Shown here: positions 6,327 to 57,992 of the stretch, piece after piece
Position numbering within the stretch: position 1 is the stretch's first letter
How the letters are laid out: each line of letters starts with the position of its first letter
DNA from: Bdellovibrionales bacterium
GTDB lineage: Bacteria; Pseudomonadota; Alphaproteobacteria; UBA2400
Direction: 5' to 3'
DNA length: 64,000 nt
Assembly (NCBI GenBank): GCA_039808765.1
Contig: JBDHTQ010000001.1
Coordinates: forward strand, 67,683 to 131,682
Notes under the pieces: generated by a model
Seen by the model: only the letters and a program-made list of their open reading frames with translations
Told to the model about the DNA's origin: nothing
Database searches by the model: none
Translations under genes and position numbers: made by a program

Positions 6327-6345
6327 TTTTTGTGAGGCTCCAATC

Positions 6346-7063: not shown

Positions 7064-7079
7064 TTTCAGGAGAAACATC

Positions 7080-7484
7080 ATGGCACTTGCAACATTAATT
7101 CCATTGCTTACGCCCTTAATTGATCAATTGATTGCTCATATTCCTGATCCACAGGCCCGTGACAAAGCCCGTAAGCAAGCCGAACAGGATTTATTGGGGT
7201 TTATCGCTCAGCAACAAAATGCGCAATCAGAAATCAATAAAATTGAAGCTGTTCATCCTAAAATTTTTGTAAGTGGATGGCGACCTTTTATCGGTTGGGT
7301 CTGTGGTGCCTCGCTCGCTTATACCTATATTGTGGCGCCATTTTGGTCATGGGTTCTTGTTTTGTGGTACCCTGATGTCAGTCTTCCTGCTTTGCCAACA
7401 GAAAGTTTATTTGAGCTTGTGCTCGCATTGCTGGGCTTGGGAGGTTTGCGGACATATGAGAAAACAAAAGGTGTAACACGCTGA
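7080..7484 (+). CDS. holin, 3-TM GTA-type (GTA_holin_3TM-like)
   Basis: The RBS aggag sits 6-7 nt before the ATG at 7080. The hydrophilic N-terminus (PDPQARDKARKQAEQDLL) is followed by hydrophobic helices and ends ..RTYEKTKGV, as in the alphaproteobacterial 3TM holin family. Confidence 0.6.
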   Translation: MALATLIPLLTPLIDQLIAHIPDPQARDKARKQAEQDLLGFIAQQQNAQSEINKIEAVHPKIFVSGWRPFIGWVCGASLAYTYIVAPFWSWVLVLWYPDVSLPALPTESLFELVLALLGLGGLRTYEKTKGVTR

Positions 7485-23049: not shown

Positions 23050-23640
23050 CTAACAACCGCTTACTTCACCAGTTGGCAAGACAAGTTCCTGAGCGTAGCG
23101 GGGCATGTTATAGTTACTGCTGGTAATTTTTACTTGACCAACCCACGTGAACCATCTTGGTGTCCATGAATAAACAGAGTTGACATACAACACGTCATTC
23201 AATGTTGCTGTTCTTAACGTTAAGGGAAGAGCGTTTCCATTGCAGGCACTCGGGAAGGTTGTTGACGGCACCGTGTTCGGAGGGGTAAACGCCCGTCGCC
23301 AGCGAACACTGGAATTGATAACCGTTCCAACGGCAGTCAATTTATAATCGGTTGCATAAATGGTGAACTGGCCTGCCAAGGTAAGTGGGGCCATAATTTG
23401 TTTGGAGGCAAACGTGATGATCTTTAGTTCATCACTCGTAATCACGCCATCAGAGTCTTGAGTAATGAGGTCAGAAATGCTTGATGTTGCCGTGCGGGCT
23501 TTGGCATCAGCAATCAACAAGTTGGAAACCTCAATAACACCAAGAAAAAGAATAAAAAGGATGGGCACGATTAAAGCAAATTCAACAGCCGCAACACCTT
23601 TTTGGTCTCTAAAATAATTATGCATACTCATTGCTGGCAT
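23050..23640 (-). CDS. TadE/TadF-like pilus assembly (pseudopilin) protein
   Basis: The N-terminus QKGVAAVEFALIVPILFILFLGVIEV is the TadE-like signature. Confidence 0.6.
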   Translation of the reverse strand: MPAMSMHNYFRDQKGVAAVEFALIVPILFILFLGVIEVSNLLIADAKARTATSSISDLITQDSDGVITSDELKIITFASKQIMAPLTLAGQFTIYATDYKLTAVGTVINSSVRWRRAFTPPNTVPSTTFPSACNGNALPLTLRTATLNDVLYVNSVYSWTPRWFTWVGQVKITSSNYNMPRYAQELVLPTGEVSGC

Positions 23641-23646
23641 TCCTTT

Positions 23647-24252
23647 TTAGAAAGGTTCGTTACGGAAGGCAACAGTTGATATAACCGAAATCGTACTGTG
23701 AGATCCTGAAGGCATACCGGTTAAAACTGCGAGCTGAGGCAATAAAAAACTATAGGGGTAAAGCGATCGAACAATTACCACGTATCCACCGGCTCCTGGA
23801 TTGTAGTTCGTGTCATCATCATTCAGGGTACCATTGGCAGGGTGGCTTGGGTTTGCGCCATCAGAAATATTGGAATAGGTCACATCTGAAAAGTTGGAGG
23901 CTGGAAAACTTTGAACATCCACAAGAAGTTTTTGCACACAGGTGGACTTAAAAATAGCGTAAACATTGCTACAGACGAGTTCCTTGAAGGCGGCCTGAGA
24001 CTGCGAATTGTTTCCGGTTAGATCAACCGGCGGGTTCGGGCCTGAGCCATCCGGGTCGTAAGAACCACCAACACGGATATGGCGTGCGGCCTGTTCCGTC
24101 GCGGTTTGAAGTTGCGCGTTGACAAAAAAGTAGGAACTCAAGTCAAAAATAGCATAAACAAAGACGATAAATGCTGGAGCGAGGAGGGCAAATTCGACGA
24201 CCGTCGAACCTTGTTCATTTGAGCACACATTTTTTCTTTTAAAAAAGCGCAT
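23647..24252 (-). CDS. TadE/TadF-like pilus assembly (pseudopilin) protein
   Basis: The N-terminus EQGSTVVEFALLAPAFIVFVYAIFDL is the TadE-like signature. It lies 6 nt upstream of the second TadE-like gene. Confidence 0.6.
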   Translation of the reverse strand: MRFFKRKNVCSNEQGSTVVEFALLAPAFIVFVYAIFDLSSYFFVNAQLQTATEQAARHIRVGGSYDPDGSGPNPPVDLTGNNSQSQAAFKELVCSNVYAIFKSTCVQKLLVDVQSFPASNFSDVTYSNISDGANPSHPANGTLNDDDTNYNPGAGGYVVIVRSLYPYSFLLPQLAVLTGMPSGSHSTISVISTVAFRNEPF

Positions 24253-38283: not shown

Positions 38284-38673
38284 TCATCCGCCTGAACGCC
38301 AAAGGTGCAATGGTCGCGATGGGGTTGGTTTCACATCTTTAGTTTGCTGTGTGGCGTCGCGATAATCGCGCACGCGGGTGGCGCGCAAGCCGCGTGTACC
38401 GTGACGATCAATCAATTCTTGCCATGCAATAAACTCTTCAACCGAAAGGGTGTAGCGCTCGCACGCATCTTCAAGGGTAATCAAACCAGACCGCACCGCC
38501 GTAACTAAGGCTGCTTTGCGTCGTGTGACCCAGCGGGTAGTACCAACAGGGGGTAAATCATCGAGCGTAATGGATGGTAACAAATCCTTGTTTTTCTTTC
38601 TACCCAGTCGAATAACGGAGGATTTTTTATGTACTTCTGCCGACGAAAAGTGTGAAATTTTTTCTTTATCCAT
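38284..38673 (-). CDS. DUF1153 / SciP-family helix-turn-helix protein (CtrA-inhibitor-like)
   Basis: The core TRWVTRRKAALVTAVRSGLITLEDACERYTLSVEEFIAWQELIDRHGTRGLRATRVRDYR matches the DUF1153 signature. It is adjacent to flagellar genes. Confidence 0.6.
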   Translation of the reverse strand: MDKEKISHFSSAEVHKKSSVIRLGRKKNKDLLPSITLDDLPPVGTTRWVTRRKAALVTAVRSGLITLEDACERYTLSVEEFIAWQELIDRHGTRGLRATRVRDYRDATQQTKDVKPTPSRPLHLWRSGG

Positions 38674-38835: not shown

Positions 38836-40485
38836 CTAACGCTTAATCTGCATCAACTCTTGCAGCATATCATCCGCTGTGCTGATTACTTTTGTGCCGG
38901 CAGAGTAAGCGCGTTGTGTAATGATCATTTTTGTGAATTCGTCCGAGAGGTCGATGTTTGACGTCTCCAGCGACGCTCCTTGCACCAGCCCCGCGCCGCC
39001 CGAGCCAGCCTCGCGAAGGTTGTATTGACCAGAGTCGGTGGTCTGAGCATACACATTACCGCTATGAGCCTCCAATCCATTAGGATTAGCAAAAGTGGCG
39101 ATTGGAAGTTTGTAAAGCTGACGAAATTCACCGTTGCTGAACGAGGCGATCACATAGCCATTTTCATCAATGGTGATGCCGGTTCTTTGACCAAGTTCGG
39201 CACCGTTCTGCGTTACGAAGGCCACGTTATAATCACTCGAAAACTGTGTAACAGCGCCGTTTGTGGGGTTGCCAGACGGATCAATGCCCAAGTCAAAGGT
39301 GATGGATTGTGTTCCAGCCCCTGTGTAGGCTGGATCCCAGTGAATGTTAACGGGGGTGGCGAGCTGTCCTGTCACACTATTGATCGACCCATCCGAATTA
39401 AAGTAAACGGTACCCGATGCAATATAGCCATCATCACCCGCTACGGTATCTACTAATCCTGTTGTGCGATTGACAGGCTGAACATACGTATTATCTGCAG
39501 CACGCGCTTCAACACTCCATTGGTTTACAGCAACTTTCTTAAAGCTAACAACAACGTCGCGCGCGGCGCCGAGAGAGTCGTAGATGCGCACTGTGCGTTG
39601 GAAGTCGTAGCCCAGCTGCGTGACAACACTGGTGCCGAAAAGATCCGTCATCACATTGCCCACGCTGCCGTTTTCCATGACGACTTTATCTTCAACATTA
39701 TCAGCCGTTACAACAAGCTGATTATTGATGATGCTGGCGCTGACCCCTGTAATGGCGTCAATTTTAGCCGCTAATGATTGCAAAGAGTCTGTGTCGTCAA
39801 CACTTACGTTAGTGGTGGTGCTGACACCGTTTGCATCCGTAACGGTAACATCGAAGTCGTAGGTAAAGGGTGCGGTAGCATTGAGGGTGCTTGTGAGTTC
39901 AGTCGCATCTGTTGGATCAGTGAAGGTTACAGACGATGCACCGAGTTTTTCTTCCGAATCTAAGTTAAGACCTAACTCAACCTTCGTCGTACCGGTGGCC
40001 ACACCATTGAGGAAGGCCACGTTCACAGGCTGCGTTGATGTAATATCAGCATTCGCGCTAGGGATTTGACCATCTGAATCCAGCAGCCAGCCATAGAGAT
40101 AAAAACCCGAAGCATTACGGAGATATCCTGTACTATCTTCTGAAAAATTGCCTGCGCGGGTATATAAAGCATTCGATTGCGATCCCGCGTCTGTTGAATC
40201 TTTGACCACAAAAAAACCGTTTCCGGAAATAGCAATATCAGTGGTAGAGCTGGATCCTTGGATAAGACCTTGCTGCGAAATTGTTTGAAGCGCTTTCACT
40301 CGTACGCCGCCTGGGTTATAGGTTACGCCGCGCTGCGCAACGGTTACCAAGCTTGAAAAAGAAGCGTTATCACCTTTATAACCAACAGTGCTTACGTTGG
40401 CGATGTTGTTTGAAATCATGCTGAGCGCCTGGCTTTGCGCGGAAAGTGCTGAAACCCCGGTGAACAATGATCCAAATAAGCTCAT
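38836..40485 (-). CDS. flgE: flagellar hook protein FlgE
   Basis: The N-terminus is MSLFGSLFTGVSALSAQSQALSMISNNIANVSTVGYK. The C-terminus is LETSNIDLSDEFTKMIITQRAYSAGTKVISTADDMLQELMQIKR. Confidence 0.9.
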   Translation of the reverse strand: MSLFGSLFTGVSALSAQSQALSMISNNIANVSTVGYKGDNASFSSLVTVAQRGVTYNPGGVRVKALQTISQQGLIQGSSSTTDIAISGNGFFVVKDSTDAGSQSNALYTRAGNFSEDSTGYLRNASGFYLYGWLLDSDGQIPSANADITSTQPVNVAFLNGVATGTTKVELGLNLDSEEKLGASSVTFTDPTDATELTSTLNATAPFTYDFDVTVTDANGVSTTTNVSVDDTDSLQSLAAKIDAITGVSASIINNQLVVTADNVEDKVVMENGSVGNVMTDLFGTSVVTQLGYDFQRTVRIYDSLGAARDVVVSFKKVAVNQWSVEARAADNTYVQPVNRTTGLVDTVAGDDGYIASGTVYFNSDGSINSVTGQLATPVNIHWDPAYTGAGTQSITFDLGIDPSGNPTNGAVTQFSSDYNVAFVTQNGAELGQRTGITIDENGYVIASFSNGEFRQLYKLPIATFANPNGLEAHSGNVYAQTTDSGQYNLREAGSGGAGLVQGASLETSNIDLSDEFTKMIITQRAYSAGTKVISTADDMLQELMQIKR

Positions 40486-40512: not shown

Positions 40513-40528
40513 TGCAAAACCCGTTCCA
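40513..40528 (-). promoter_or_regulatory. sigma-54-type promoter motif upstream of flgE
   Basis: The minus strand reads TGGAAC-GGGTT-TTGCA (GG-N10-GC spacing). The -12 element lies ~28 nt upstream of the flgE ATG. Confidence 0.5.
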
Positions 40529-40530: not shown

Positions 40531-41268
40531 TTATGAACTTGTTGCGGTTGATGTTGAGTCACTTGATGCTGTTGTTGGAGCTGTGTAGGCACGTACTGAT
40601 TTTACAGCGCTGGGATCAATTTGCGCGCTGCCCATTTCAAGGACGGTATTGCCGCTGCTGTTTTGACTGATGCCTGTAACAACACCGTAGGTATTAATCG
40701 TATTTTTTACCGCAGCTCCACCCTCAGCGGTAGCCGTGACGCGTACCGTGTATGTGCCATCTGCAAGCTGATCACCTTCATTATCTTTGCCGTCCCAGCT
40801 CATTTCCTGTGCTTTGCCAGCTGTAAAATTCGAGCCATCAACTGTGAGGCCACGCACAAGTTTACCATCGCTGTCATAAATGCCGATATTGACCGATTTT
40901 GCCGCGCTCTCTAAGGTCACATCAAAGTTGGCATTGCTTCCTTGCAGCGGGAGTGTTGATGACTGAGATGAGACTTGCCAACCCAGATAATTCAGTGCGC
41001 TGTTGACGCCTTGACCTTGAAGCAAGTTAATCATGGAATCAAGTTTATCATTGGTTGAAAGCTGTTGCTCGACTTGGCTGTACATAACAAGTTGGTTGGT
41101 AAATTGTGCCGTATCCACCGGATTAAGGGGATCTTGATACTGCATTTGTGTTGTAAGCATTTGCAAAAATGTATCGAAATTGGCGTTCAGCGTTTTACGC
41201 GACGTTTCTGTTTTCGATGCGGTGGTATTGGTCGAGGTGGTTGAGGCGGTGGTCGTGGTCGTTGTCAT
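40531..41268 (-). CDS. flgD: flagellar hook capping/assembly protein FlgD
   Basis: The motif FDTFLQMLTTQMQYQDPLNPVDTAQFTNQLVMYSQVEQ is present, followed by a FlgD Ig-like C-terminal part. Confidence 0.85.
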   Translation of the reverse strand: MTTTTTTASTTSTNTTASKTETSRKTLNANFDTFLQMLTTQMQYQDPLNPVDTAQFTNQLVMYSQVEQQLSTNDKLDSMINLLQGQGVNSALNYLGWQVSSQSSTLPLQGSNANFDVTLESAAKSVNIGIYDSDGKLVRGLTVDGSNFTAGKAQEMSWDGKDNEGDQLADGTYTVRVTATAEGGAAVKNTINTYGVVTGISQNSSGNTVLEMGSAQIDPSAVKSVRAYTAPTTASSDSTSTATSS

Positions 41269-41298: not shown

Positions 41299-43020
41299 TT
41301 AAACGCGTACATCCAAACGATCAGGATTGATGTACCATGTTACTTCACTGGCAGAGAGCGTTTGTTTATCGTCATTTTCACCATCTAAACCGAATCCAGC
41401 TTGAGAAGACGACGAACGTCCATCAGATTGTGCTTGTTGTTGTGACGATTGACCTTCGCCGCGCAGATTGAAGTTGAGGGTTGATCCATCTGTTTTAATT
41501 CCTGCATCGCTTAGCGCGCGTTCAAGACCTTTTTGATCACGTTGCAGCAGATCAAGTGTAGCGGGTTGATCGACCGAAAATCTCATCTGCACACTGCCGT
41601 CGCTGTTTGTGTCCATGCGCACCTCAATGCGACCTAGTTCAGCGGGATGAAGCTTAATGGTGATTTTATCTTGCCCGCTTTCAAAAGCATGCGAGATGTT
41701 TACCGCAACTTGATCACTCACGGGAACGTGGGTTCCATGACGATTGGAGTGAGCAAGCAAATCAGCAAATCGCGTCGCGCTATTTTCAGCTGTTTTATCC
41801 AGAGATTGAGGGGGGGTAAGTGTACCGCGATCTTTAAGCGTTACTTCTGTCCCATCAGGTTGATCGCTCTTCTTCTGTTCAAGCGTAACAACATCGGCCG
41901 AAACGGATGTTGCCATTGAGGAATGAGTTTCTGAGGTAAGTGATGCTTGAGTGATGGGGGGAGAGGGAGCAATCACGCTCTCATTTTGTGCCGATTGTTC
42001 CTCCTTGTGATGTGCAGAGGCTGCCATGTTTTTTGCGGTCGAGGTTTGATCGGTATCCACCGCTGTTTTTTGTTTGAGGGCTGTATCGGATTTGGTTCCA
42101 GCCTGCAAACCCACCTTGTGCGTATCAGATGTTTGATCCGTGCTCACTTCAGTATCAATGGTAGATGCTGTTTTTGTCTCTTGTTTATGGAGATCAATAG
42201 ATGCATTTGTTGCGTCATTGGCGTTGCTTACTCTTTGGGCGTCTGCAGTTTGCGCAGCCTGCTCTGATTGTTTTTGCTTCTGACTCGCGACAGCCTGCAT
42301 ATTTAGTTTTGCAATTGCATCCAAAAAGGCTTTGCCCATTTCTTCGGCCGAAGAAGAGCTGGAGAGTTGTGCAGCTTGCGCATTTTTGTTGGAGGCTTCC
42401 ACCTCTTGCAACGCTTGTGCGCGCTCAAGCAAATCGGCTAACGTCACGCCTTGGCTGCTGCCAGCTAAGGATGGACCGCTTTCGGCCAGAGTGGCTTGTG
42501 AGTCGGTTTTTTGTGTGGGCGCAAAAGCAGTAGGCGGCAGCGTCATCAAGGCACCGGCCAGACTGTCGAGCAAAGCGTTCTGCTCATCTTCTTTCAGGCC
42601 ATCCAAAACACCGGCTTCTTCAAGAAAACTGTGCAGAGCCGTCATATTCTCTTCTAATAAATCCGTTTGTAGACCCGGCATAACTGTTTCTAGCGAGACC
42701 ATACTCAACCCTTTGGCCTGTAACGCGGTGCTGAGCGCTGTCCATGAAACATTGGCTTGCGCGCTAGTGGTCGAGGCATAATTTTCCAGCGTTGTCAGAT
42801 TAATGGGTAAAGTTTGCCCAGTGACGCCGCCTTTGAATAACTTGAGCGAGGCAGTGGGTAAACCCTTGCCGCTTAAGGTTTGAATAAAACTGGAAAAGAG
42901 AGAAAATGCGTGGTTTTCGGTATTTTCTTGCGTGCTCGAAGCACCCAAAGCACCCAAAATGCCCGTACTGGACGAAGGAGTCGTGCTGGATAATGAAACG
43001 CCAGGAAGTGATGTCATCAT
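41299..43020 (-). CDS. fliK: flagellar hook-length control protein FliK
   Basis: The central region is long and Ser/Thr/Ala/Gln-rich. The C-terminal Flg_hook domain reads ITIKLHPAELGRIEVRMDT..VQMRFSVDQPATLDLLQRDQKGLERALSDAGIK. Confidence 0.75.
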   Translation of the reverse strand: MMTSLPGVSLSSTTPSSSTGILGALGASSTQENTENHAFSLFSSFIQTLSGKGLPTASLKLFKGGVTGQTLPINLTTLENYASTTSAQANVSWTALSTALQAKGLSMVSLETVMPGLQTDLLEENMTALHSFLEEAGVLDGLKEDEQNALLDSLAGALMTLPPTAFAPTQKTDSQATLAESGPSLAGSSQGVTLADLLERAQALQEVEASNKNAQAAQLSSSSSAEEMGKAFLDAIAKLNMQAVASQKQKQSEQAAQTADAQRVSNANDATNASIDLHKQETKTASTIDTEVSTDQTSDTHKVGLQAGTKSDTALKQKTAVDTDQTSTAKNMAASAHHKEEQSAQNESVIAPSPPITQASLTSETHSSMATSVSADVVTLEQKKSDQPDGTEVTLKDRGTLTPPQSLDKTAENSATRFADLLAHSNRHGTHVPVSDQVAVNISHAFESGQDKITIKLHPAELGRIEVRMDTNSDGSVQMRFSVDQPATLDLLQRDQKGLERALSDAGIKTDGSTLNFNLRGEGQSSQQQAQSDGRSSSSQAGFGLDGENDDKQTLSASEVTWYINPDRLDVRV

Positions 43021-43060: not shown

Positions 43061-43076
43061 AGCAAGACTTGGGCCA
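43061..43076 (-). promoter_or_regulatory. sigma-54-type promoter motif upstream of fliK
   Basis: The minus strand reads TGGCCC-AAGTC-TTGCT (GG-N10-GC). It lies ~40 nt upstream of the fliK ATG. Confidence 0.5.
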
Positions 43077-43155: not shown

Positions 43156-43171
43156 TGGCACAAGATATGCA
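43156..43171 (+). promoter_or_regulatory. sigma-54-type promoter motif upstream of flgL
   Basis: The plus strand reads TGGCAC-AAGAT-ATGCA (GG-N10-GC). It lies ~80 nt upstream of the flgL ATG. Confidence 0.55.
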
Positions 43172-43251
43172 CAGATAAGGGAGCAAGGCGTCTGTCCGCA
43201 TGTGGGTCAGATCAGTTTGTTATGTTTGCCGATTAAATAAGGAGCGAAGCA

Positions 43252-44142
43252 ATGTCGACGATCTCCCGCGTGGGAACCCATCAATCTCAGAGCTTTATTC
43301 TTGATCAGATCAACAAAGCGACTGTTGGGTATGTTAAAACCCAAGAGCAGATTACCACGGGCTATAAATCCCAGCGTTACACGGGTATTTCAGATTATGC
43401 GGCTATGTCGGTCAACCTTTCCAACAGCAAAGATAATTTGCAGCAATATCTTGATGCCTCGAGTGTTACAAATTCTCGTATTAGTGCGATGCACACGGCT
43501 CTTTCTAATATCTTGGATATTGTTAGCTCAATGCGGGCGCAATTGATTCAAGGGATGACGGCCGATCAAGCTGATGATGCGCAGCTACAATCGGTTGCAT
43601 CCGAATATCTGTCGCAAGTTGAATCGGCTCTCAACACAGATTTGGGGGGCGTTTATTTGTTTGGCGGTACAAAAAATACGACGCCGCCCGTTGATTTAAG
43701 TGATCCGATCAATAATGCGAGCGGCGACTTTTATTCAGGCGCAGGGCAGTTGATGCAAGCGCGGATTGATGAAAACACCGTTTTCCAGTATGGCGATACA
43801 GCTAACCGACAAGGGTTTAAAGATTTGGTGGCGTCACTGCAGCGTGTTATTTCTGCTTCAGGGGATCTGAGTCAGCTCGAAACTGCATTGGATGAAATTA
43901 ACGACTCCCTCTCCGACCTCACAAATCTAGAGGCTGTGATGGGTTATCAGATGAAGGTTGTTGAGCAATCACAAACACGCAACGACGCCGTAAAATCGAC
44001 AGTAGTTAATCAGCTTTCCTCAATACAAGATGTTGACGTTTCTGCAGCCATGGTCGATCTCACCCAGCGCGAAACGATTTTGCAGGCGTCTTATCAAGTC
44101 ATTGCACGCGGTAGCCAGTTAAGTCTTACAAACTACCTGTAA
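43252..44142 (+). CDS. flgL: flagellar hook-associated protein 3 (FlgL), flagellin-fold
   Basis: 296 aa with flagellin-like N- and C-terminal helices (..LQASYQVIARGSQLSLTNYL). It is too short and too divergent to be a flagellin. No flgK is adjacent. Confidence 0.6.
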   Translation: MSTISRVGTHQSQSFILDQINKATVGYVKTQEQITTGYKSQRYTGISDYAAMSVNLSNSKDNLQQYLDASSVTNSRISAMHTALSNILDIVSSMRAQLIQGMTADQADDAQLQSVASEYLSQVESALNTDLGGVYLFGGTKNTTPPVDLSDPINNASGDFYSGAGQLMQARIDENTVFQYGDTANRQGFKDLVASLQRVISASGDLSQLETALDEINDSLSDLTNLEAVMGYQMKVVEQSQTRNDAVKSTVVNQLSSIQDVDVSAAMVDLTQRETILQASYQVIARGSQLSLTNYL

Positions 44143-44324: not shown

Positions 44325-44948
44325 ATGTTGTCACTCCTCATTCTAAGCGCAATTATGTTATGTGAACTTTTTATTCATTATGTATTTATATATGAGTTTA
44401 TTGGTGGCTGGCTGATCCTTCTCATAAAAATTGCGTCTGATAAAATCGCCCCGCGCAAGGCAAAAATTCTAAATTTTTTGGGTGTTCTTTTTTTTCCGCC
44501 CCTTATGTTGGTTTTTGCGTTGAAACAAAAATCGTGGGCATGGAAAATTTATGGCGGATTTAATTTGGTCGTTATTATTATCTTGTTGGCGCTGACAGTT
44601 TCTTATACGTCAATACACACAAAGCGTCCTTATCGGGATGATCAGTTTTTAAAAATATCTAAGAATGACAATTCGTCTGAAACATCGGCTAAACTTGCTA
44701 TCAATGATATATATGTAAAGGTTACGTCGCTTGAAGATGCTCATGACAAAAAAAGTCCCGTCGGTGTCGTTATTTTTCGATTGGGTCGTTATGCCGATAG
44801 CTTGGAAAGCCACGCCATTGAACCGCAAAGGATCGAATCTGAACTGAAAAAGTTAGAGCCTTATCTCGATGATAAAAAACTCACTTCGCATGAGGTGGAC
44901 CAGTGGGTTCGCGACACTATGCCGAGTAACTCTAAGGGGATGAAGTGA
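44325..44948 (+). CDS. hypothetical membrane protein in an AT-rich insert
   Basis: Four hydrophobic helices in the N-terminal half and a charged C-terminal half. The gene and its flanks are visibly more AT-rich than the neighbouring flagellar genes. Confidence 0.4.
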   Translation: MLSLLILSAIMLCELFIHYVFIYEFIGGWLILLIKIASDKIAPRKAKILNFLGVLFFPPLMLVFALKQKSWAWKIYGGFNLVVIIILLALTVSYTSIHTKRPYRDDQFLKISKNDNSSETSAKLAINDIYVKVTSLEDAHDKKSPVGVVIFRLGRYADSLESHAIEPQRIESELKKLEPYLDDKKLTSHEVDQWVRDTMPSNSKGMK

Positions 44949-44966: not shown

Positions 44967-45260
44967 TCAAGTGTTTGGCGCGGTGTAAACTTTGTTGTTG
45001 GCAGCATAAACGCGCGCCAGAATTTCACTGACAACATGTAATGCTTCAAGGGGAATGTTCTCACCCACATCAACGGCCGCAAGAATTTGAGCGAGGTCGG
45101 CGTCTTCACGCACTTTTACGCCATTTGCAAAGGCAAGCTCTAAGATCGCTTGAGCAACTTCGCCATAACCGCTGGCAACTACTTTGGGCAGCGGTCCTTC
45201 TGCGCCTTGTAACGCGACTGCGACGGTGCGGGGTGGGGAAGGGGGGATCATCAACAACAC
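44967..45260 (-). CDS. FlhB C-terminal-domain-like protein (EscU/YscU/HrcU family fragment, YlqH-like)
   Basis: The sequence VAVALQGAEGPLPKVVASGYGEVAQAILELAFANGVKVREDADLAQILAAVDVGENIPLEALHVVSEILARVY matches the soluble C-terminal domain of FlhB. It has no TM domain. Confidence 0.7.
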   Translation of the reverse strand: MLLMIPPSPPRTVAVALQGAEGPLPKVVASGYGEVAQAILELAFANGVKVREDADLAQILAAVDVGENIPLEALHVVSEILARVYAANNKVYTAPNT

Positions 45261-45279
45261 TCCTTCACGTAGCGATATT

Positions 45280-46842
45280 TTACCCTAATAATGCATAAAC
45301 CCATTCAGGGCGAAGATCAGGCCACCACAAAAGCAACAATGCGATGACAATCACTGCAAGGCTTGCTCCCCAACCAATCGAACCGGCAGTCGCAGAAATT
45401 TTTTTATTGGGTGCGATGATGGTTTTAAGGGCGCGACGTCCGGCTATTTCAACGCTTATCCATGGAATAAGAGCAAAAATAGCGATAAGGCCGATATCCA
45501 TAGCCCATGTTGGCACGTTGGCGGGAATAAACTCAGGGCGGGGATTATAGAGCCACGCAAAAATAGCTCCGCTTGAAAGTGCGATAGATCCGCCCGCAGC
45601 GATTAATCGCGGTTTAACAGTTACGGTTGAAAACAAGCGTCGCAATTGTCCTGCTAGCATGAAGGCGACATCGGGAGAGACGCCGTAAGGATAGCGTCGC
45701 GCAAAAAACACTCGGGGTTTAACGCCCGCAGCCAAGGCTTCGCTCAGTTCTCGCAATAAACGAAACTGACGGCAGAATTTTGGCAAGGTTGTTAAGTCAA
45801 GTGATCGTGTTATTTGTTTCAAACGATCATCCAGTAATGGGGGGAAGGAGACAAGAATGGGTTTGTATCCTAATGATTCCACCACTACGATTTCATCTTT
45901 AAGCTGTAAAGTAAATTGGCCATAGGGAAAGCGGGCGTCAAGCGCAATAGCTGGTACATCCATTTCGGGCGGGGTTGGGGCGGGCGAAACCAATGCAATG
46001 CCCATTTTATCGAGCTTATCCAGCCCAACGTCGTTCAGTGCATCAACGACGTTCCCATTAGGTTGAGGGATGAAACTTCCAGCGCGAAAACTGCTTACAG
46101 CATTCACTGTTAGTGTTGTTAATTCTGTAAAATAACCTTGTCCATTACAGAGAGTGCATTGTGTTTGGCCATGGCCTTGGCAATGGGTGCAAACAATACG
46201 TCCGCGACTGTTGCATTGAGGGCATGGCAACGTGCGCAGACCATTGCATTGGGGGCATGCCCGTCCGCCTTGGCTGGACGGATCGCTGCCTGTACCGCGA
46301 CACGTGGTACAATTAATGCGGCCACGCTCATAGCAAAGTTCGCATGATCGTTCGCGCTGGCCGTGGCAGGTGCGACACACTTCCCAACGTTGGCCCTTAC
46401 ATTGTTCGCATACTTCCGTCAAAGCAACTGTTTGGGTTAAGCGAGGCAAAGGCCAGCGCGCTGCGTTGCTTCCCCAAAGCTGACTTAATTGGCCTTGTAC
46501 AGCAGTTTGAACATCTTCTAGCCAACCTGGTTGTGCTTCAAACGTTTGAGTGGCCGTGCTGAGGTAATGAGTATATTGGTGACGGTCTTGAAAAACCTTG
46601 TTTTCATTGCCGTTGGTCTGCCCGGGGCGCCGCTGGGTGTTCTGGTTTACGGCGAGTTTAAATTCTACCAAGCCTTTAAGGGTAAAATCGGTATTTTTAT
46701 CCTGACGGATATCAATTTCATCGAATCGGTATCCGTTGCCTGCAAGGATGCGGCGCAATAAAGTCAGTGTGCTATTGCGCAGGTCACCAATTTCATCAGC
46801 GGACGAGATGGGCAGGTCGGGATCTATGGGTTGATCAGACAT
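45280..46842 (-). CDS. membrane protein with a DnaJ-type zinc-finger array (eight CxxC motifs) and C-terminal TM helices
   Basis: Residues ~169-260 of the listed ORF read CEQCKGQR, CRTCHGQR, CELCYERG, CTTCRGTG, CPQCNGLR, CPQCNSRG, CTHCQGHG, CTLCNGQG. Three or more hydrophobic helices lie at the C-terminus. The start is uncertain (46914, 46854 or 46842). Confidence 0.55.
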   Translation of the reverse strand: MSDQPIDPDLPISSADEIGDLRNSTLTLLRRILAGNGYRFDEIDIRQDKNTDFTLKGLVEFKLAVNQNTQRRPGQTNGNENKVFQDRHQYTHYLSTATQTFEAQPGWLEDVQTAVQGQLSQLWGSNAARWPLPRLTQTVALTEVCEQCKGQRWEVCRTCHGQRERSCELCYERGRINCTTCRGTGSDPSSQGGRACPQCNGLRTLPCPQCNSRGRIVCTHCQGHGQTQCTLCNGQGYFTELTTLTVNAVSSFRAGSFIPQPNGNVVDALNDVGLDKLDKMGIALVSPAPTPPEMDVPAIALDARFPYGQFTLQLKDEIVVVESLGYKPILVSFPPLLDDRLKQITRSLDLTTLPKFCRQFRLLRELSEALAAGVKPRVFFARRYPYGVSPDVAFMLAGQLRRLFSTVTVKPRLIAAGGSIALSSGAIFAWLYNPRPEFIPANVPTWAMDIGLIAIFALIPWISVEIAGRRALKTIIAPNKKISATAGSIGWGASLAVIVIALLLLWWPDLRPEWVYALLG

Positions 46843-47182
46843 GGGATGAATCATCCTCGGGTGTTTGGTTGGGATTGGAAAGTGGGCCCTTTTCCTCTGA
46901 CGAAGGGTGGGCATGGGGATCGGATTCTTGAAGAGTGACTTTACCTAAAGAAAAGGGCTTGTCTGGCAAAATAAGGGGCCGGTCCGGCGGTATGAAGGCA
47001 ATTTCTGCCGCGGCGCGGTTCTCCTCCTGAATGCGGTCAAAGACTTCTTTGCGCAGGATTGTGATTGACTCAGGGAATTTTAACCCCAGTTTAACAGATT
47101 TTCCCGAAACAGAAACCACTGTAATCTCAATGTTTTCATTGATCATAATGGTTTCGCCGATTTTTCTGGTCAGATAAAGCAC
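46835..47182 (-). CDS. csrA: CsrA-family RNA-binding regulator with a ~50-aa Pro-rich C-terminal extension
   Basis: A GTG start at 47182 gives MLYLTRKIGETIMINENIEITVVSVSGKSVKLGLKFPESITILRKEVFDRIQEE. This is collinear with E. coli CsrA ([54 protein letters not shown]). Confidence 0.7.
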   Translation of the reverse strand: MLYLTRKIGETIMINENIEITVVSVSGKSVKLGLKFPESITILRKEVFDRIQEENRAAAEIAFIPPDRPLILPDKPFSLGKVTLQESDPHAHPSSEEKGPLSNPNQTPEDDSSHV

Positions 47183-47186: not shown

Positions 47187-47202
47187 TGGCCTGTTTCCTG
47201 CA
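47187..47202 (+). promoter_or_regulatory. weaker sigma-54-like motif facing flgB
   Basis: The sequence is TGGCCT-GTTTC-CTGCA (GG-N10-GC), ~135 nt upstream of the flgB ATG. It is a weaker match than the three motifs above. Confidence 0.3.
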
Positions 47203-47295
47203 AGGGGTTAATCGATAGGGTGTAAGAGCATAAGCTCCCGGTAAAAATGACCGACCTATTTGTAACAGGACTGTTCTCACCTGACAAAGGCAAAA

Positions 47296-47338: not shown

Positions 47339-47752
47339 ATGTCCATGAGTGGATTAACATTACTTTCTCAAATTGAGAAAAAAGTCGATTGGCTGGCAGC
47401 ACGATCGCAAATTTTGTCCAAAAACGTGGCAAATGCCGACACACCGGGTTATCGTACGCAGGACTTGAAGCCATTTAGCCTTACTCGCACCCTTCAGGGT
47501 GCACCGGCGCTGGCGCTGGCAAGCACAAGTAGCGGTCATATCACCGACTCGCCGCGTGTTTCGCAGGTGCCGGTCCTTGATGATAATCTGCCGATTACCG
47601 AAACCTCGCCGGATGGTAATCAGGTTTCGATTGAAGATCAAATGACCAAAGTTGCTGATACCGGTATGGAGTATCAGACAATGACCAACCTTTACCGCAA
47701 ACAACTATCTATGCTGAAAACGGCGATCGGTCGTGGCGGCGCGTCAGCATAA
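47339..47752 (+). CDS. flgB: flagellar basal-body rod protein FlgB
   Basis: The motif LAARSQILSKNVANADTPGYR is present. It is the first gene of flgB-flgC-fliE. Confidence 0.85.
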   Translation: MSMSGLTLLSQIEKKVDWLAARSQILSKNVANADTPGYRTQDLKPFSLTRTLQGAPALALASTSSGHITDSPRVSQVPVLDDNLPITETSPDGNQVSIEDQMTKVADTGMEYQTMTNLYRKQLSMLKTAIGRGGASA

Positions 47753-47775
47753 TTGAAGAGACAGAGGAGGTTTAG

Positions 47776-48192
47776 ATGGACGGAAGTTTTTCAACCACAC
47801 AAAAAATTTCTTATGCCGGTCTTGCTGCACAAGCAGCACGCATGCGCGTGATTGCAGAAAATATTGCAAATGCTGATTCGACCGCTCCTACGCCCGACGG
47901 TTTGCCATATCGTCGTCAGGTTGTAACATTCGGGCAGCAGCTTGATGAAACAAGCGGCACAGATTTGGTCAAAGTTAAAGACATCAAGCAAGACGGTAGC
48001 GAATTTCCCCGTAAATATATGCCAGGACATCCCAGTGCTGATGCCGATGGGTACGTTTTGTATCCTAATGTGAATAGTCTGGTAGAGACCATGGATATGC
48101 GTGCTGCTCAGCGCAGTTACGAAGCCAATTTGAATGTTATTGAAAATGAGCGTATGATGGCCGCGCGCTCAATTGATCTTTTACGCGCTTAA
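47776..48192 (+). CDS. flgC: flagellar basal-body rod protein FlgC
   Basis: The motif RMRVIAENIANADST is present. The C-terminus reads VNSLVETMDMRAAQRSYEANLNVIENERMMAARSIDLLR. Confidence 0.9.
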   Translation: MDGSFSTTQKISYAGLAAQAARMRVIAENIANADSTAPTPDGLPYRRQVVTFGQQLDETSGTDLVKVKDIKQDGSEFPRKYMPGHPSADADGYVLYPNVNSLVETMDMRAAQRSYEANLNVIENERMMAARSIDLLRA

Positions 48193-48224
48193 GGTATGCT
48201 GGAGAGAGCAGAAAGGAGGGTCGC

Positions 48225-48539
48225 ATGGTAAATCTTAATCAGGTTGCGTCTGCGGCCTATGGCGCCAGTCAGAAACTAGGCTTAAAAGGGGCTGGTGAGC
48301 CCGCTCAGAATGATGGCCAGTACGATACCTTTGCCGCTATGGTTGAAAAAGGGATGGATAGGGTTATCGATAGCCAGCACCGTGCCGAAAAGCTTTCCGC
48401 CGATTTGGTTATGGGGAAAGCGGATGTCAATGATGTGATTTTTGCAACTCAGGATGCCAGTATGATGCTTGAAACATTTGTTGCGCTTCGTGATAAAGTC
48501 CTTCAGGCTTATCAAAATATCATGAGTTCAGCGATCTAA
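48225..48539 (+). CDS. fliE: flagellar hook-basal body complex protein FliE
   Basis: 104 aa. The C-terminus is DVNDVIFATQDASMMLETFVALRDKVLQAYQNIMSSAI. Confidence 0.85.
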   Translation: MVNLNQVASAAYGASQKLGLKGAGEPAQNDGQYDTFAAMVEKGMDRVIDSQHRAEKLSADLVMGKADVNDVIFATQDASMMLETFVALRDKVLQAYQNIMSSAI

Positions 48540-48743
48540 ACTGAGGCAAGTGCAATCGTTTACTCCTTACTTCTTGCATCTTCTTTTTTCCTTTGATGCT
48601 GCCTGCAGCAAAACTTCGCGTTGTGTTTTTGTTCGATCAACTTTATAAGTTTTTATCCCCCTACGGATTGCTCGAAGGTTTTGCCGGGCGAGTGAGGCAG
48701 GGATCAGTGTTTCGCCGTAAAAATTACCGAGGTTTTGTTCAAA

Positions 48744-50228
48744 ATGAAGAAGTCTGGCTGGATTGCGTTATCGATTTTTCTGATTGTGATTTTGGCGATT
48801 GCTGTCGCTGCTGATCGCCTGCTTGCCTTTTCAGCAACAAAGATGTTGGAGGATGCACAAAATCGTCTTCCCGCGGGAACAACCTTTATGCACGGCGAAT
48901 TGCATACCAGCCTCTTTCGGCGGGTGGTCGTGCTTGATAATTTTGTCTACCAAACACCCATATGGACGTTTAAAGCCGATCGCGCCGTGTTGCGTGGCGT
49001 GCCTTGGATCGACAATGAATCATTGTCGTTAGGCGGTATCGAACTGGTAAAGCCTGTTGTAACGGGACCGGTGAGTGGCTCGCTTGATCAATTGGTCGTG
49101 GGGCATCCTTATATCGGACCCGTTAAGGAGGGTGAGGCATCGGGCCTGCAATTCCAATCGCTTGAGGCAAAAAATCTAGACTCGCGTTATGAAAAAGATG
49201 GTAGTTTTCTGCGTGTGGGGGATTTGGAAATCAAAAATTTAACGGGTACAAATCTCGGTCAACTAAAAATTGTGGATTTGGAAGCCCATATTGCCGATAT
49301 TAACCTTGCCGAAAAGTTACAGCGACAAGCAGAGATACGTAGGCTAAATGCGAACATCGATTCGCTTCCTGATGGACCTGTGGTTCCCGCTGAGCCGGTT
49401 AATGCAAAGCTTGAATTTCTCTCTGCCGACGGGGTTGACCTCGCGCTTTTTAAAAATAATGATTCGACCGATGTTTTAAATCGGCTTTTTTTTCAAGATA
49501 GCTTGCGTGCCCTTGAGATAAAAAAACTAAAGGTAGAAAAAAATAATCATCAGGATTTTGATGTCGATTCTGTCCTATTTAATGGGGAAGATGTTGCCCA
49601 TAACGAGCGCCGCGGCCTTAATTTCGCTATTCAAAATCTCAAGATCGCAGCAGGTGGCCTTCCCCCGGAGTTAATCGAAAATCTAAAGGCAGGTGGGCAT
49701 GATGCGCTTCTCGTCAATTTGACTGCAGGTGCAACTTTTGATGAAACAGCGCATCAGTTAAAGATTGGGCCGTTTGAATTGCGGGCTGATGGCCTGTTTG
49801 CTCTCAGCGCTTTCTTTAATCTCGTAAATATTAGAAATCTTGCTCAAATGTCGAGTCCTGCTGCCGTCGCGTCAATGGGATTTAAGGATGGCGAGATCAG
49901 TCTTGTTGATTTCGGCGGCATTTCACGCTATACAAATATGAAAGCAAAGAATCATGGCATGACACGCGCTGATTATGTTGCGACACAGCTGAACATTTTT
50001 TCTCAAGGGACGCCCCTTGATCAAATGCCCAGCCGAAGTCGCGATATTTTTACAGCCGTGACGCGTTTTTTAAACGAGCCATCAGGTGTGCGCTTTGTCG
50101 CACATCCTCAAGATCCTGTATCGTTAGTCCTTATCTTCGTGATGGTCCAAACGAAACAAGTGCAGGTTTTATTGGATAAAATAGGATTAACAACTGAAAA
50201 AATGGAGAATCAACATTTATCACAATAA
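48744..50228 (+). CDS. membrane-anchored hypothetical protein (~495 aa)
   Basis: A single N-terminal TM helix (GWIALSIFLIVILAIAVAA) is followed by a large extracytoplasmic part. I recognise no family. Confidence 0.45.
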   Translation: MKKSGWIALSIFLIVILAIAVAADRLLAFSATKMLEDAQNRLPAGTTFMHGELHTSLFRRVVVLDNFVYQTPIWTFKADRAVLRGVPWIDNESLSLGGIELVKPVVTGPVSGSLDQLVVGHPYIGPVKEGEASGLQFQSLEAKNLDSRYEKDGSFLRVGDLEIKNLTGTNLGQLKIVDLEAHIADINLAEKLQRQAEIRRLNANIDSLPDGPVVPAEPVNAKLEFLSADGVDLALFKNNDSTDVLNRLFFQDSLRALEIKKLKVEKNNHQDFDVDSVLFNGEDVAHNERRGLNFAIQNLKIAAGGLPPELIENLKAGGHDALLVNLTAGATFDETAHQLKIGPFELRADGLFALSAFFNLVNIRNLAQMSSPAAVASMGFKDGEISLVDFGGISRYTNMKAKNHGMTRADYVATQLNIFSQGTPLDQMPSRSRDIFTAVTRFLNEPSGVRFVAHPQDPVSLVLIFVMVQTKQVQVLLDKIGLTTEKMENQHLSQ

Positions 50229-55260: not shown

Positions 55261-55352
55261 TTATCTCTTAAGATTTTTATACGTATTATGCATTCGTTAA
55301 TTTTTCATGCGCTATCTTGCCAGATAGGGGTTTGCCCATAAGAGTTGTGAAA

Positions 55353-57401
55353 ATGGCCGATAACGAGACAGTAAAAACCACTGCTGCTAAAACCGACGCT
55401 ATGCCCGAGAAAATCTCAATCTGCGGGGGGCACTTTGAGATCATGACTAAAGCGGTGTTGGATGGTTTGTCTCAGCCCTCGGGTAAAGCATATGCGTTAA
55501 ATGCCTCTCGGGGGGGCAATGGTTTATTCGCAATCGTGGTCAATCCGGGAGAGTTGCCCCGTGTCGAGCTTGCAAGCAACGCTTTAAACGTCAAAAGCCA
55601 GCAGGTAATGCGCTTTATTGAATATGATAGTGTCTACTGGCCTGAATTTGATATTGCTCAGCCTGTCTTTGTCTTCGAGCGACCCATAGGGCCTCGCCTG
55701 TTAGACCACCGGGCGCAAGAACGGCATCCGCTCAATAATGAAGTGTTCTTCCGTCAAGCTGTTGAAAGCTTAATGGATGGAATGCGCGATTTGTTCCTTG
55801 TCGGGTGTAATCATGGTCGCATTAATCCCACCAACCTTTATGTCAAAGAAGGTGGAGGAGCGCAGATTCAATTGGGGGAGTTTCTAACGTGCCAACCCGG
55901 CTGTGCGCAAGATCCAGCGTATGAAACAATTGAACGAATGATGGCTGCACCCTCTGGGCGCGGGCCAACTCTCCCTGCTGACGATGTATATGCAATTGGT
56001 GTGACCCTTTTAACGTTACTGTTCGGAAAATTACCTGCCGCTAACCTTTCAGCAGAAGAGCTTCTAATCGCAAAAATTGAAAAAACCAGTCTGTTGGCTC
56101 TTTTAAATGGCATGCGTTTGCCTAGCGCCTATAGCGAACTGATGCGCGGATTGTTAACAGATGATTCTAAGCAACGTTGGTCGTTGGATGATGTCAGTCA
56201 TTGGTTGAGCGGACGGCGTATGGGAAGCAAGTCAGCGACACAGGTGAAAAAAGCACAGCGCGCCATTCTTTTTGAAAATGAACCAATATTCAATGCGCGT
56301 TTGCTGGCCCAAAAAATGGCTGAACGCCCCGATGAAGGTATGCGTATCATTGATGATAATTCATTGGCTCGATGGGTTAATCGTTCGCTGGGGGATGAAG
56401 AAATGGCCGCCAGAATTAATGATGCCATCGCCTCGGCAACATCGGTGACGCGTGGTGGTACGCCAGCTGAACGCACCCTTTCGCGTGTGGTACAGGCGCT
56501 GGATCAACGCGCACCCCTAAGGTTTCGTGATATCAGCGCCATGCCCTCTGGTTTAGGGCCTTATTTGGCGACTCTTATCTTAAATGGCCGTTCTCCTACG
56601 AATGTCGTCGAGCTTATATCAAGCCAGCTTATGACCTTTTGGTTAAACTTGTCAGAGAATCTTTGCAGCGAGAACATGGCGCTCACGCAAGCGTATGACG
56701 GTATGCGCATGCTCATGGATCGTGCGCAGATTGGTTTCGGTATAGAGCGTGTTGCTTATGAACTCAACCCGGGGTTGCCCTGCTTAAGCCCTTTTTTAGG
56801 CCATGCTCGGCCCCTCAATTTGAAGGGATTGATGCATGCACTTGAAGGCTGGGCTAAATCAAACGCCGGACAAGAACCAAAACGCGATCCTCTTGATCGG
56901 CATCTTGCCGCTTTTATTCTTTGTCACTATCGCCGCGTAAATGATCGGCTTTTTCAAGTGATTACCCCTAAAGGCGACCCGATTATGAAAGGTATCGCGC
57001 TGCTAACAATCTACGCAGAAATTCAACGAAAGTTTCATCCCGAAGATATGCCGCATCTGGCTAACTACCTTGTTGCTTTTCTTGAACCCTCGTTGAAACG
57101 ATTCAAGAGTCGCCATCTGCGCGAACGAATGCTTAAGGATTTACATCGGTTGGCTAAAAAAGGCAATCTTGATGCCATGCTGCAGGTGGTTGATGACGCG
57201 TCAACTATCGGTAAAGACGAGGAAGCGTTTCAGACGGCCTGCTCTCAATACGAAATGTTCGATAAAGTGATCAAAGACTTATCGTCAGGGGGCAAACGCG
57301 AAAAATCACTCACAAAGCAAGGTCAACAAATCACTGCGTTTTTAAGCTGCCTCTTGGCATTTATCGCGATCTCGCTCATGTTTTTTCTTCAATTGGTATG
57401 A
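55353..57401 (+). CDS. tail-anchored Ser/Thr-kinase-like pseudokinase with a large helical C-terminal region
   Basis: The kinase-fold C-lobe is recognisable but the catalytic motifs are degenerate. HGRINPTNL replaces HRDxKxxN, LGEF replaces DFG, and no Gly-loop or VAIK Lys is present. DVYAIGVTLLTLLFGKLP and DDSKQRWS are retained. The C-terminal TM helix is FLSCLLAFIAISLMFFLQLV. Confidence 0.6.
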   Translation: MADNETVKTTAAKTDAMPEKISICGGHFEIMTKAVLDGLSQPSGKAYALNASRGGNGLFAIVVNPGELPRVELASNALNVKSQQVMRFIEYDSVYWPEFDIAQPVFVFERPIGPRLLDHRAQERHPLNNEVFFRQAVESLMDGMRDLFLVGCNHGRINPTNLYVKEGGGAQIQLGEFLTCQPGCAQDPAYETIERMMAAPSGRGPTLPADDVYAIGVTLLTLLFGKLPAANLSAEELLIAKIEKTSLLALLNGMRLPSAYSELMRGLLTDDSKQRWSLDDVSHWLSGRRMGSKSATQVKKAQRAILFENEPIFNARLLAQKMAERPDEGMRIIDDNSLARWVNRSLGDEEMAARINDAIASATSVTRGGTPAERTLSRVVQALDQRAPLRFRDISAMPSGLGPYLATLILNGRSPTNVVELISSQLMTFWLNLSENLCSENMALTQAYDGMRMLMDRAQIGFGIERVAYELNPGLPCLSPFLGHARPLNLKGLMHALEGWAKSNAGQEPKRDPLDRHLAAFILCHYRRVNDRLFQVITPKGDPIMKGIALLTIYAEIQRKFHPEDMPHLANYLVAFLEPSLKRFKSRHLRERMLKDLHRLAKKGNLDAMLQVVDDASTIGKDEEAFQTACSQYEMFDKVIKDLSSGGKREKSLTKQGQQITAFLSCLLAFIAISLMFFLQLV

Positions 57402-57416
57402 TGGGGCGGTTTAATC

Positions 57417-57884
57417 ATGGGAAAAAAATCTAAATCCAAGAAGTCTAATCGCTCACTTCTCCTTGTTCTTGTAATGCTGGGCGTTTGGCAAATGCCATAT
57501 ACATTTGTCATTCTTTGTGGGCTGTTACCCAGCGGCGTTGTTTGGCTTATCGATCGCGGCCACTCCAAACTTACCGCAGTGACGATTGCAGCGATGAACG
57601 GAATCGCGTTGGTGCCGATCTTAATCCATCTTTGGGATCAAGGAGGTGGCATGACAGCTGCAATGAGTTTAATGGGATCAACTATAAATTGGGTTTTGAT
57701 CCTTCTTGCTGTCATTGTTGGATGGTCGTTTGCGCAAGGCGTCCCAAATTTTGTTGTCAGTATTATTCTTAACCGTGAACGCGCCCACATTAAACGTATG
57801 AAAGAAGGTCAGCGCCTGCTTATTGAAGAGTGGGGCGATGACGTTGCTGATGGGTTTGAAAAACCCAATTTTCCAAGCAAATGA
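57417..57884 (+). CDS. 4-TM membrane protein
   Basis: It starts 15 nt after the pseudokinase stop and has four hydrophobic helices and a charged C-terminal tail. Confidence 0.5.
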   Translation: MGKKSKSKKSNRSLLLVLVMLGVWQMPYTFVILCGLLPSGVVWLIDRGHSKLTAVTIAAMNGIALVPILIHLWDQGGGMTAAMSLMGSTINWVLILLAVIVGWSFAQGVPNFVVSIILNRERAHIKRMKEGQRLLIEEWGDDVADGFEKPNFPSK

Positions 57885-57992
57885 CTATAAGGTATTATAA
57901 AATTAAAAATCTTTATGACTTAATTTTTTATTCATCAGTAATCCCTTAATATGTTATGGTTGTGGTCCATATGGGACGGGGAGGGTATTGTT

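Follow-up and report, generated by a model that had tools for sequence, protein, structure and literature searches.

A CsrA protein with a predicted disordered, proline-rich tail, encoded in an alphaproteobacterial flagellar locus and overlapping the gene of a zinc-finger membrane protein

Introduction

The well-established off-switches of CsrA are sponge RNAs and the protein FliW, with CesT as a special case. Here we describe a csrA gene located among flagellar genes in a Micavibrio-related alphaproteobacterium that is found in activated-sludge and wastewater metagenomes. The DNA analysed is a stretch of 64,000 nucleotides (nt) from contig JBDHTQ010000001.1 of assembly GCA_039808765.1, which is called the window throughout and supplies the coordinates used below. 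Next to csrA are genes for a zinc-finger membrane protein (ZnF) and for a small protein similar to the C-terminal domain of FlhB. By analogy with the Bacillus, Campylobacter and Borrelia systems, we consider it somewhat probable (roughly 0.55) that this CsrA is a flagellum-linked translational repressor whose action is lifted when a protein binds to its surface around N55, the likeliest candidate being a FliW encoded elsewhere.

The closest described system is CsrA-FliW-Hag of Bacillus subtilis and Geobacillus (structures 1t3o and 5dmb), where CsrA has an extension beyond the E. coli length and the gene is also found among flagellar genes. Mutation of N55 abolishes FliW binding, and N55 is reported to be invariant wherever CsrA and FliW co-occur; D41 of B. 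subtilis CsrA is the acidic partner of FliW K123, and is needed for inhibition (10.1101/2020.07.02.184341). Longer CsrA C-termini go together with the co-occurrence of FliW (PMC7366521). In the KEGG table of the same paper (Table S1), CsrA is confined, among the alphaproteobacteria, to Tistrella, two Thalassospira genomes and Magnetococcus, and FliW is present in all four; all other alphaproteobacteria in that table have neither CsrA nor FliW. Our literature search on alphaproteobacterial CsrA found nothing beyond presence/absence tables of this kind.

The CsrA and RsmA proteins of E. coli and Pseudomonas belong to the same fold family and have the same RNA-binding residues, and their antagonists are the CsrB/Rsm sponge RNAs. 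E. coli CsrA differs from the protein described here: position 55 is K, the extension is lacking, and the gene is not a flagellar one. An antagonist that is not FliW but is linked to secretion is the type III secretion chaperone CesT of enteropathogenic E. coli (cited in PMC7366521). Finally, in Caulobacter-type alphaproteobacteria, members of the same bacterial class, post-transcriptional control of flagellin is exerted by FlaF and FlbT, which are unrelated to CsrA; neither is in the window.

Results

The CsrA core

The csrA gene occupies 46835..47182 on the minus strand, with a GTG start at 47182, and encodes 115 amino acids (aa) followed by a stop codon (46835-46837). The product matches the Pfam family CsrA (PF02599) over the whole model (positions 1-53 of 53) with 77.3 bits and an E value of 8.4e-22, against a cut-off of 27. 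It is also above the cut-offs of two NCBIfam equivalogs, namely TIGR00202 (79 bits, cut-off 70.1) and NF002469 (77 bits, cut-off 73). Among sequences of solved structures, the alignment to E. coli CsrA (1y00) is gapless over positions 1-55. An initial annotation of the window had assigned the gene to the CsrA family and had described it as collinear with E. coli CsrA over about 55 residues, and both statements hold. It is certain, on the strength of these profile and alignment matches, that the product is a genuine CsrA-family protein, and that it is ordinary in its core. This identity is not new, because such genes are already annotated as CsrA. A tblastn search with CsrA against plasmids gave no match.

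The core comprises residues 1-61 (47000..47182, minus strand). An AlphaFold2 (AF2) model of the monomer predicts β strands at 11-35 and a helix at 45-61, with a predicted local distance difference test score (pLDDT) of 74-87, and the helix is preceded by R44 and includes N55 and ENRAAA. Residues M1, L2, L4, R6, K7, G9, E10, R44 and E46 are invariant in 26 aligned sequences from the alphaproteobacterial clade described below and are all present in the window protein. The RNA-binding positions L2, L4, R6, R44 and E46 are among them, so that the residues expected of a CsrA/RsmA protein are conserved.

The best matches in the PDB are B. subtilis 1t3o and Geobacillus 5dmb, which was crystallised with FliW, both aligned over residues 1-61. 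The helix motif IQEENRAAA is near-identical to the IQEENNRAAA of B. subtilis, and both N55 and I14 are invariant across the 26 clade members. The features expected for docking of the FliW type, namely N55 and an extended C-terminal helix and extension, are therefore present in the window protein. At position 41 the window protein has threonine, and the 26-sequence alignment shows T, S, A or R but never an acidic residue.

Search for FliW and flagellin

Searches with Pfam, which covered essentially all open reading frames (ORFs) of at least 90 aa judged to be likely genes, found no FliW in the window. A FliW hidden Markov model (HMM) built from three PDB chains (2aj7, 5dmb and 9p4g) likewise found nothing among the 12,553 ORFs, each 40 aa or longer, of the window and 93 loci. 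Precomputed Pfam assignments for the genes around csrA in eight non-redundant loci include no fliW either. The absence of fliW is a statement about the 64-kb window and the fetched flanks, not about the genome.

The same Pfam scans found no filament flagellin in the 64 kb. The sole flagellin-superfamily gene of the window is flgL-like (43252-44142, plus strand), and it was rejected as a filament flagellin because its product carries the YLFGG hook-junction motif. The initial annotation was thus right in stating that neither fliW nor a flagellin gene is in the window. In no locus that we examined is csrA adjacent to fliW or to flagellin; its neighbours are flgBC-fliE, the flhB-like gene and, in the subclade that includes the window, the ZnF gene.

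Related loci and gene order

The window CsrA lies within an alphaproteobacterial CsrA clade, all members of which begin MLYLTRK(I/P)GE. Its named members are Denitrobaculum, Pelagibius, 'Rhodospirillaceae' and 'Alphaproteobacteria bacterium'. There are two subclades: A, which has ..VSVSGK.. and includes the window, and B, which has ..EVRGKSIKLGFTFP.. in its place. Clade A was examined in seven distinct loci, namely the window, L002/L009 (Micavibrio sp. UBA2400), L008, L010 (Micavibrio sp.), L011-L013, L094 and L096.

The flgB-flgC-fliE genes of the window (47339..48539, plus strand, with starts at 47339 for flgB, 47776 for flgC and 48225 for fliE), which were identified by Pfam and by tblastn synteny, are divergent from csrA. 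The order fliE-flgC-flgB facing csrA-ZnF-flhB-like is found in all seven distinct clade-A loci. The clade-B loci (L004 and L006/L007) have the order csrA-flhB-like-hypothetical-fliO-fliP, without a ZnF gene, and here csrA faces a divergent flgBC-fliE-fliQR-flhB block. The CsrA proteins of clade B, which comes from Denitrobaculum, Pelagibius and metagenome-assembled genomes (MAGs), are 55-60% identical to that of the window and begin MLYLTRKIGE; they differ in lacking the tail motif discussed below, and their genes start with ATG. Altogether, csrA adjoins flgBC-fliE and the flhB-like gene in the window and in seven further non-redundant loci that have sequence downstream of csrA; one other locus, L095, ends at csrA. 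The initial annotation had called for a survey of csrA in related alphaproteobacterial flagellar loci, and the flagellar context is kept in all of them.

Because both clades have the csrA-flhB-like module and clade B lacks ZnF, we take the position of csrA beside a free paralogue of the FlhB C-terminal domain to be a deep alphaproteobacterial feature, and the insertion of ZnF to be specific to clade A. The gene tables of the type Micavibrio strain, M. aeruginosavorus ARL-13, give the order flgB-GMV1703-GMV1704-GMV1705-fliP, with no csrA, FliW or ZnF annotated there (PMC3189940). The csrA-ZnF pair is therefore not universal in Micavibrionales, and the MAGs labelled 'Micavibrio sp.' differ from ARL-13 in this respect. 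One clade-A locus, L008 (CAYSDE010000099.1), is labelled 'Pseudobdellovibrionaceae' and carries csrA-ZnF-flhB-like, with a CsrA 64% and a FlgC 70% identical to those of the window. The bin label of this locus is probably wrong.

The C-terminal tail

A longer ORF, starting from TTG at 47293, would give a protein of 152 aa. This start was ruled out because all homologues begin MLYLTRK at the position of the GTG at 47182, which is accordingly taken as the start of csrA.

The tail consists of residues 62-115 (46838..46999, minus strand) and is rich in proline and acidic residues. Its 54 residues agree with the proline-rich extension of about 50 residues described in the initial annotation. In the AF2 monomer the pLDDT drops to about 38-54 over these residues, which is a prediction of disorder. 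Within clade A the identity is 82% in the core and 33% in the tail. The order of elements in the clade-A tails is common, starting with (A)PDLxxLxLP, followed by polyproline of the PxPxLPP type and then by an acidic end; the window version of the first element is IPPDRPLILP. Those of clade B are shorter as a rule (74-84 aa, though a few reach 96-108), lack the PDLxxLxLP/polyproline motif, and share only 10% identity. The tail of the window protein is the longest known, and is an elaboration of a feature found throughout the clade. It is predicted, from the model and the clade alignment, that the tail is an intrinsically disordered extension that varies between lineages, with a weakly conserved first part (PDLxxLxLP-like).

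An independent assembly (GCA_039808745.1, locus L001) encodes the same 115-aa product with one substitution. All 17 of the closest CsrA homologues read on in the same frame with similar tails rich in proline and acidic residues, and there is no earlier in-frame stop in csrA. Given the independent assembly and the 17 homologues with the tail in frame, it is concluded that the tail is real and not an error of frame or assembly.

Overlap of csrA with the ZnF gene

The initial annotation noted that the stop of csrA overlaps the start of the gene for a zinc-finger membrane protein. This is an overlap of 8 nt (ATGTCTGA, 46835..46842, minus strand), of the kind that suggests translational coupling, and it is strictly conserved in clade A: the csrA stop overlaps the ZnF start in all seven distinct loci, by 1-8 nt, in the form ATGA, TAATG or TGATG in the relatives and ATGTCTGA in the window.

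The last codons of csrA, which encode E-D-D, contain GAGGATGA (46851..46858, minus strand), a putative Shine-Dalgarno sequence (SD) of the ZnF gene. A purine-rich SD is found at the same place in all seven clade-A loci, where the codons at the acidic end of the tail read GAGGAGG, GGAGGAAG, GAGGATGA and similar. Because these codons form the SD of the overlapping gene, the acidic end of the tail is, as judged from the seven loci, constrained mainly as the SD of a translationally coupled ZnF gene. A downstream ribosome-binding site is a mundane cause for an acidic end, and calls for caution when 'extensions' are read in overlapping genes.

The ZnF membrane protein

The ZnF gene (45280..46842, minus strand) encodes 520 aa. 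A start at 46914 was rejected because the homologues all begin MS.., which fits the ATG at 46842 (MSDQP..). The protein has an N-terminal domain, eight CxxC motifs, a β domain, a helical domain, and three C-terminal transmembrane helices at approximately 413-432, 446-469 and 483-507, as located by hydropathy. The placement of positive charge predicts that the large N-terminal part is cytoplasmic. Eight CxxC pairs are invariant in alignments of the family, making four putative zinc centres that are DnaJ/BSD2-like.

Profile matches to DnaJ_CXXCXGXG (PF00684; 17.9, cut-off 32.7) and BSD2 (PF25436; 17.3, cut-off 27) are both below the cut-offs. A Foldseek search of the PDB with the AF2 model (pLDDT 73.6) gave a weak match to the BSD2 zinc finger (E 0.019), and no fold match beyond that module. 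The protein was rejected as a DnaJ, having no J domain. It was also rejected as a hidden FliW, with an hhalign probability of 0.2% and nothing from Foldseek beyond the zinc-finger module.

No Pfam or NCBIfam model covers the ZnF family. When 1.84 billion representatives were searched exhaustively with HMMER, 247 clusters (at 50% identity) reached E<=1e-30 and 729 reached E<=1e-10; most are full-length proteins of about 500-560 aa. The clade-A proteins have 494-525 aa and are just 36-48% identical. In a distant subfamily, full-length members in three metagenome loci (L016-L018) adjoin uvrA, atpA/atpH, MCP or metabolic genes, with no csrA or flagellar genes nearby. Because distant members sit in such housekeeping contexts without csrA, their gene neighbourhoods indicate that the family is not intrinsically a partner of CsrA, and that one branch of it has been recruited into a flagellar operon in this lineage.

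Promoters, leaders and candidate CsrA targets

A sigma-70-like promoter for the csrA operon is predicted at 47259..47287 (minus strand), with TTGTCA (47282-47287), a spacer of 17 nt, TACAAA (47259-47264), and TG before the -10 element. The arrangement is common to five of the six other clade-A loci (L002, L008, L010, L011 and L096), and is not found in L094. A sigma-54 promoter for csrA (TGGCGTGCTTTTCGCA, 129 nt upstream) was considered and rejected, because it is not conserved in the relatives.

The csrA leader (47190..47239, minus strand), a candidate site of CsrA autoregulation, can form a small hairpin at 47224-47239; after it, at the ribosome-binding site (47190-47202), comes the conserved UGCAGGAAACAGG. 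The inverted repeat that forms the hairpin was found by eye in the window, L002, L008 and L010. In clade A the conserved element at the csrA ribosome-binding site is UGCAGGAAR..GGCCAA, and the start codon of csrA is non-ATG in all loci, whereas it is ATG in clade B. Autoregulation of CsrA through its own leader is plausible from these sequence features.

Counts of GGA in leaders were tried as a means of predicting targets and proved uninformative. Nearly every SD in this DNA contains GGA, so that prediction of targets from sequence is not meaningful. An Rfam scan of the 64-kb window at the gathering thresholds gave four tRNAs only, and no Csr/Rsm RNA.

Motifs of the sigma-54 type (TGGCAC-N5-TTGCW, with one mismatch) occur just upstream of flgE (40513-40528, minus strand), fliK (43061-43076, minus strand) and flgL (43156-43171, plus strand); the number of such motifs in the window is not above chance, and these three sit in flagellar intergenic regions. 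The leader of the flgL-like gene has two near-identical AUAAGG(G)AGC motifs (43175-43185 and 43237-43246), about 55 nt apart, of which the second is the SD. Flagellin leaders with two-site CsrA operators have a similar layout, but the motifs are candidates only, as most SDs here contain GGA.

Other genes in the window

The third gene of the csrA group is listed at 44967..45260 (minus strand). Its product matches Bac_export_2 (PF01312) with 48.8 bits (cut-off 24.4) at positions 258-335 of 335, that is, over the C-terminal subdomain of FlhB only. It resembles the FlhX/flhB_rel type (TIGR00789), with a score of 58.4 bits that is below the cut-off of 117. Its listed GTG start overlaps its own SD, GAAGGAG (45260-45266), and the true start is for this reason probably the ATG at 45251, which gives a protein of 94 aa.

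On the other side of this gene, Pfam identifies a DUF1153 protein (38284-38673), flgE (38836-40485), flgD (40531-41268) and fliK (41299-43020), all on the minus strand, and a membrane protein of 207 aa is encoded at 44325-44948 (plus strand). Together with flgL-like, flgB, flgC and fliE, these genes bear out the description of the surroundings as an alphaproteobacterial flagellar locus in the initial annotation, as do the alphaproteobacterial homologues and the loci from MAGs labelled Micavibrio. After fliE, also on the plus strand, come a 497-aa protein without a Pfam match (48735-50228) and a NYN-domain protein. The first of these may be a flagellar accessory protein; L011 and L096 have unannotated genes of 327-437 aa at the same place after fliE.

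The rest of the window contains, by Pfam, housekeeping genes, Tad pilus genes and the end of a cluster like that of a gene transfer agent (GTA). The GTA-like cluster end (2193-7484) encodes DUF6950, a Phage-tail_3 protein of 945 aa, a phage lysozyme and GTA_holin_3TM; like the DUF1153 gene, it fits an alphaproteobacterial host. Tad/Flp pilus genes (TadE-like and TadG-like) are found at 55317-60530 and 23050-24252, and one of these sites adjoins a gene for a 694-aa protein with a weak match to protein kinases.

Discussion

The evidence leans, circumstantially, to a CsrA of the FliW type. The suggestion in the initial annotation, that either the extension or the neighbouring protein replaces FliW, is not supported: the protein has the FliW-type marks N55, I14 and IQEENRAAA, FliW accompanies CsrA in all four CsrA-bearing alphaproteobacteria of the KEGG table, distant ZnF proteins are not linked to csrA, and the acidic end of the tail serves as an SD. 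The gene csrA is the first of a conserved three-gene operon, csrA-ZnF-FlhB-like, with a predicted sigma-70-like promoter and divergent from flgB-flgC-fliE. By analogy with Bacillus, Campylobacter and Borrelia, CsrA would be of the ancestral flagellum-linked type and would act on late flagellar mRNAs by binding GGA motifs where the ribosome binds. Its likeliest target would be a flagellin mRNA encoded elsewhere, and perhaps its own leader too. The antagonist would dock on the face around N55 and on the first part of the C-terminal extension. ZnF might serve the export gate as a chaperone or as an assembly factor.

There are several differences from the Bacillus system. The window csrA pairs with flgBC-fliE and the flhB-like gene, and not with an adjacent fliW or flagellin gene; D41 is replaced; the tail has 54 residues rather than about 13; and the coupled ZnF membrane protein has no counterpart in Bacillus.

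A number of results weigh against a FliW-relieved repressor of flagellin. In the seven other non-redundant alphaproteobacterial loci with flanking sequence, no fliW lies within 10 kb of csrA. The acidic residue 41, which in B. subtilis forms the inhibitory salt bridge with FliW K123, is absent throughout the clade. In M. aeruginosavorus ARL-13, FlaF and FlbT are encoded beside a 583-aa flagellin, with no CsrA or FliW annotated (PMC3189940); the order therefore has another control of flagellin translation, and the target of CsrA here may not be flagellin. GGA is present in five of the seven clade-A csrA leaders and is replaced in L002 and L094. Finally, RNA-seq runs were searched, and none covers the locus.

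The alternative that survives best, although we regard it as unlikely, is a switch that does not depend on FliW. ZnF would dock on the tail motif, on the N55 face or on both, and, possibly with the help of the FlhB-like protein, would sequester CsrA at the membrane close to the export gate, so that CsrA is tied to flagellar assembly. Such a partnership would be in keeping with a gene order and overlaps of 1-8 nt that are retained in seven of seven clade-A loci despite a ZnF identity of 36-48%, and with the restriction of CsrA proteins of 86-115 aa with the (A)PDLxxLxLP-polyproline motif to the clade that has ZnF, clade-B tails being 10% identical. The predicted cytoplasmic N-terminal domain also appears to carry a protein-binding zinc-finger module of the DnaJ/BSD2 type. 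The lack of a nearby fliW and of D41 points the same way, as does the precedent of CesT as a CsrA antagonist other than FliW (PMC7366521). CesT is, however, a small soluble chaperone to which ZnF, a membrane protein of 520 aa, bears no similarity, and an interaction of ZnF with CsrA is hypothetical. In addition, the protein still has N55 and a helix of the FliW type, csrA-flhB-like persists in clade B where ZnF is lacking, and the acidic end of the tail is accounted for by the SD. The ZnF family itself comprises no fewer than 247 clusters at 50% identity, and those distant members that were examined show no link to csrA or flagella. The fuller form of this proposal is harder still to credit: that the membrane-anchored ZnF, with four zinc centres, took over or supplements the role of FliW by recognising the PDLxxLxLP-polyproline tail, and with the FlhB-like protein tethers CsrA at the export gate, where the state of secretion would gate translation.

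It is likewise improbable that CsrA is a broader regulator of lifestyle, for example of the choice between growth and a motile or attack phase. Control would then come from an autoregulated leader, from the weakness of the GTG start and perhaps from small RNAs rich in GGA, with no flagellar protein partner, and flagellin would be controlled through FlaF/FlbT. The conserved UGCAGGAAG at the csrA ribosome-binding site and the non-ATG start in all clade-A loci would suit such a regulator, as would FlaF and FlbT beside flagellin in ARL-13, and a csrA promoter that is sigma-70-like as against sigma-54-type for flgE, fliK and flgL. The strict flagellar synteny across two deep clades is difficult to reconcile with it, and the conservation of N55 suggests a protein partner. 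The window also has no RNA of the CsrB/Rsm type, 64 kb being a small sample.

The remaining alternative, that the extension is an artefact (a mis-called frame, as the initial annotation had allowed, an assembly error or a recently lost stop) and the real protein has about 60-75 aa, could appeal to the poor conservation and predicted disorder of the tail, but is effectively refuted by the identical length of the product in the second assembly, by 17 clade-A homologues that are all in frame up to the ZnF start with a common order of motifs, and by the lack of an earlier in-frame stop.

We return to our preferred reading, a CsrA relieved by a protein docking around N55, for what the locus means. 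The literature search found no description of the csrA-flhB-like module, of csrA-ZnF coupling or of the tail motif. Hence the alphaproteobacterial module, its obligatory and clade-specific coupling of csrA to ZnF, and the motif all appear to be undescribed. Should ZnF touch CsrA, antagonists of a third class would be known, and the export gate would be physically and directly connected to translation. Otherwise, the locus would still provide the first functional context, a flagellar one, for an unannotated family with several hundred clusters. Few studies have dealt with alphaproteobacterial CsrA, and this locus reveals what appears to be a deeply conserved module of csrA and a free gene similar to the C-terminal part of FlhB, divergent from flgBC-fliE.

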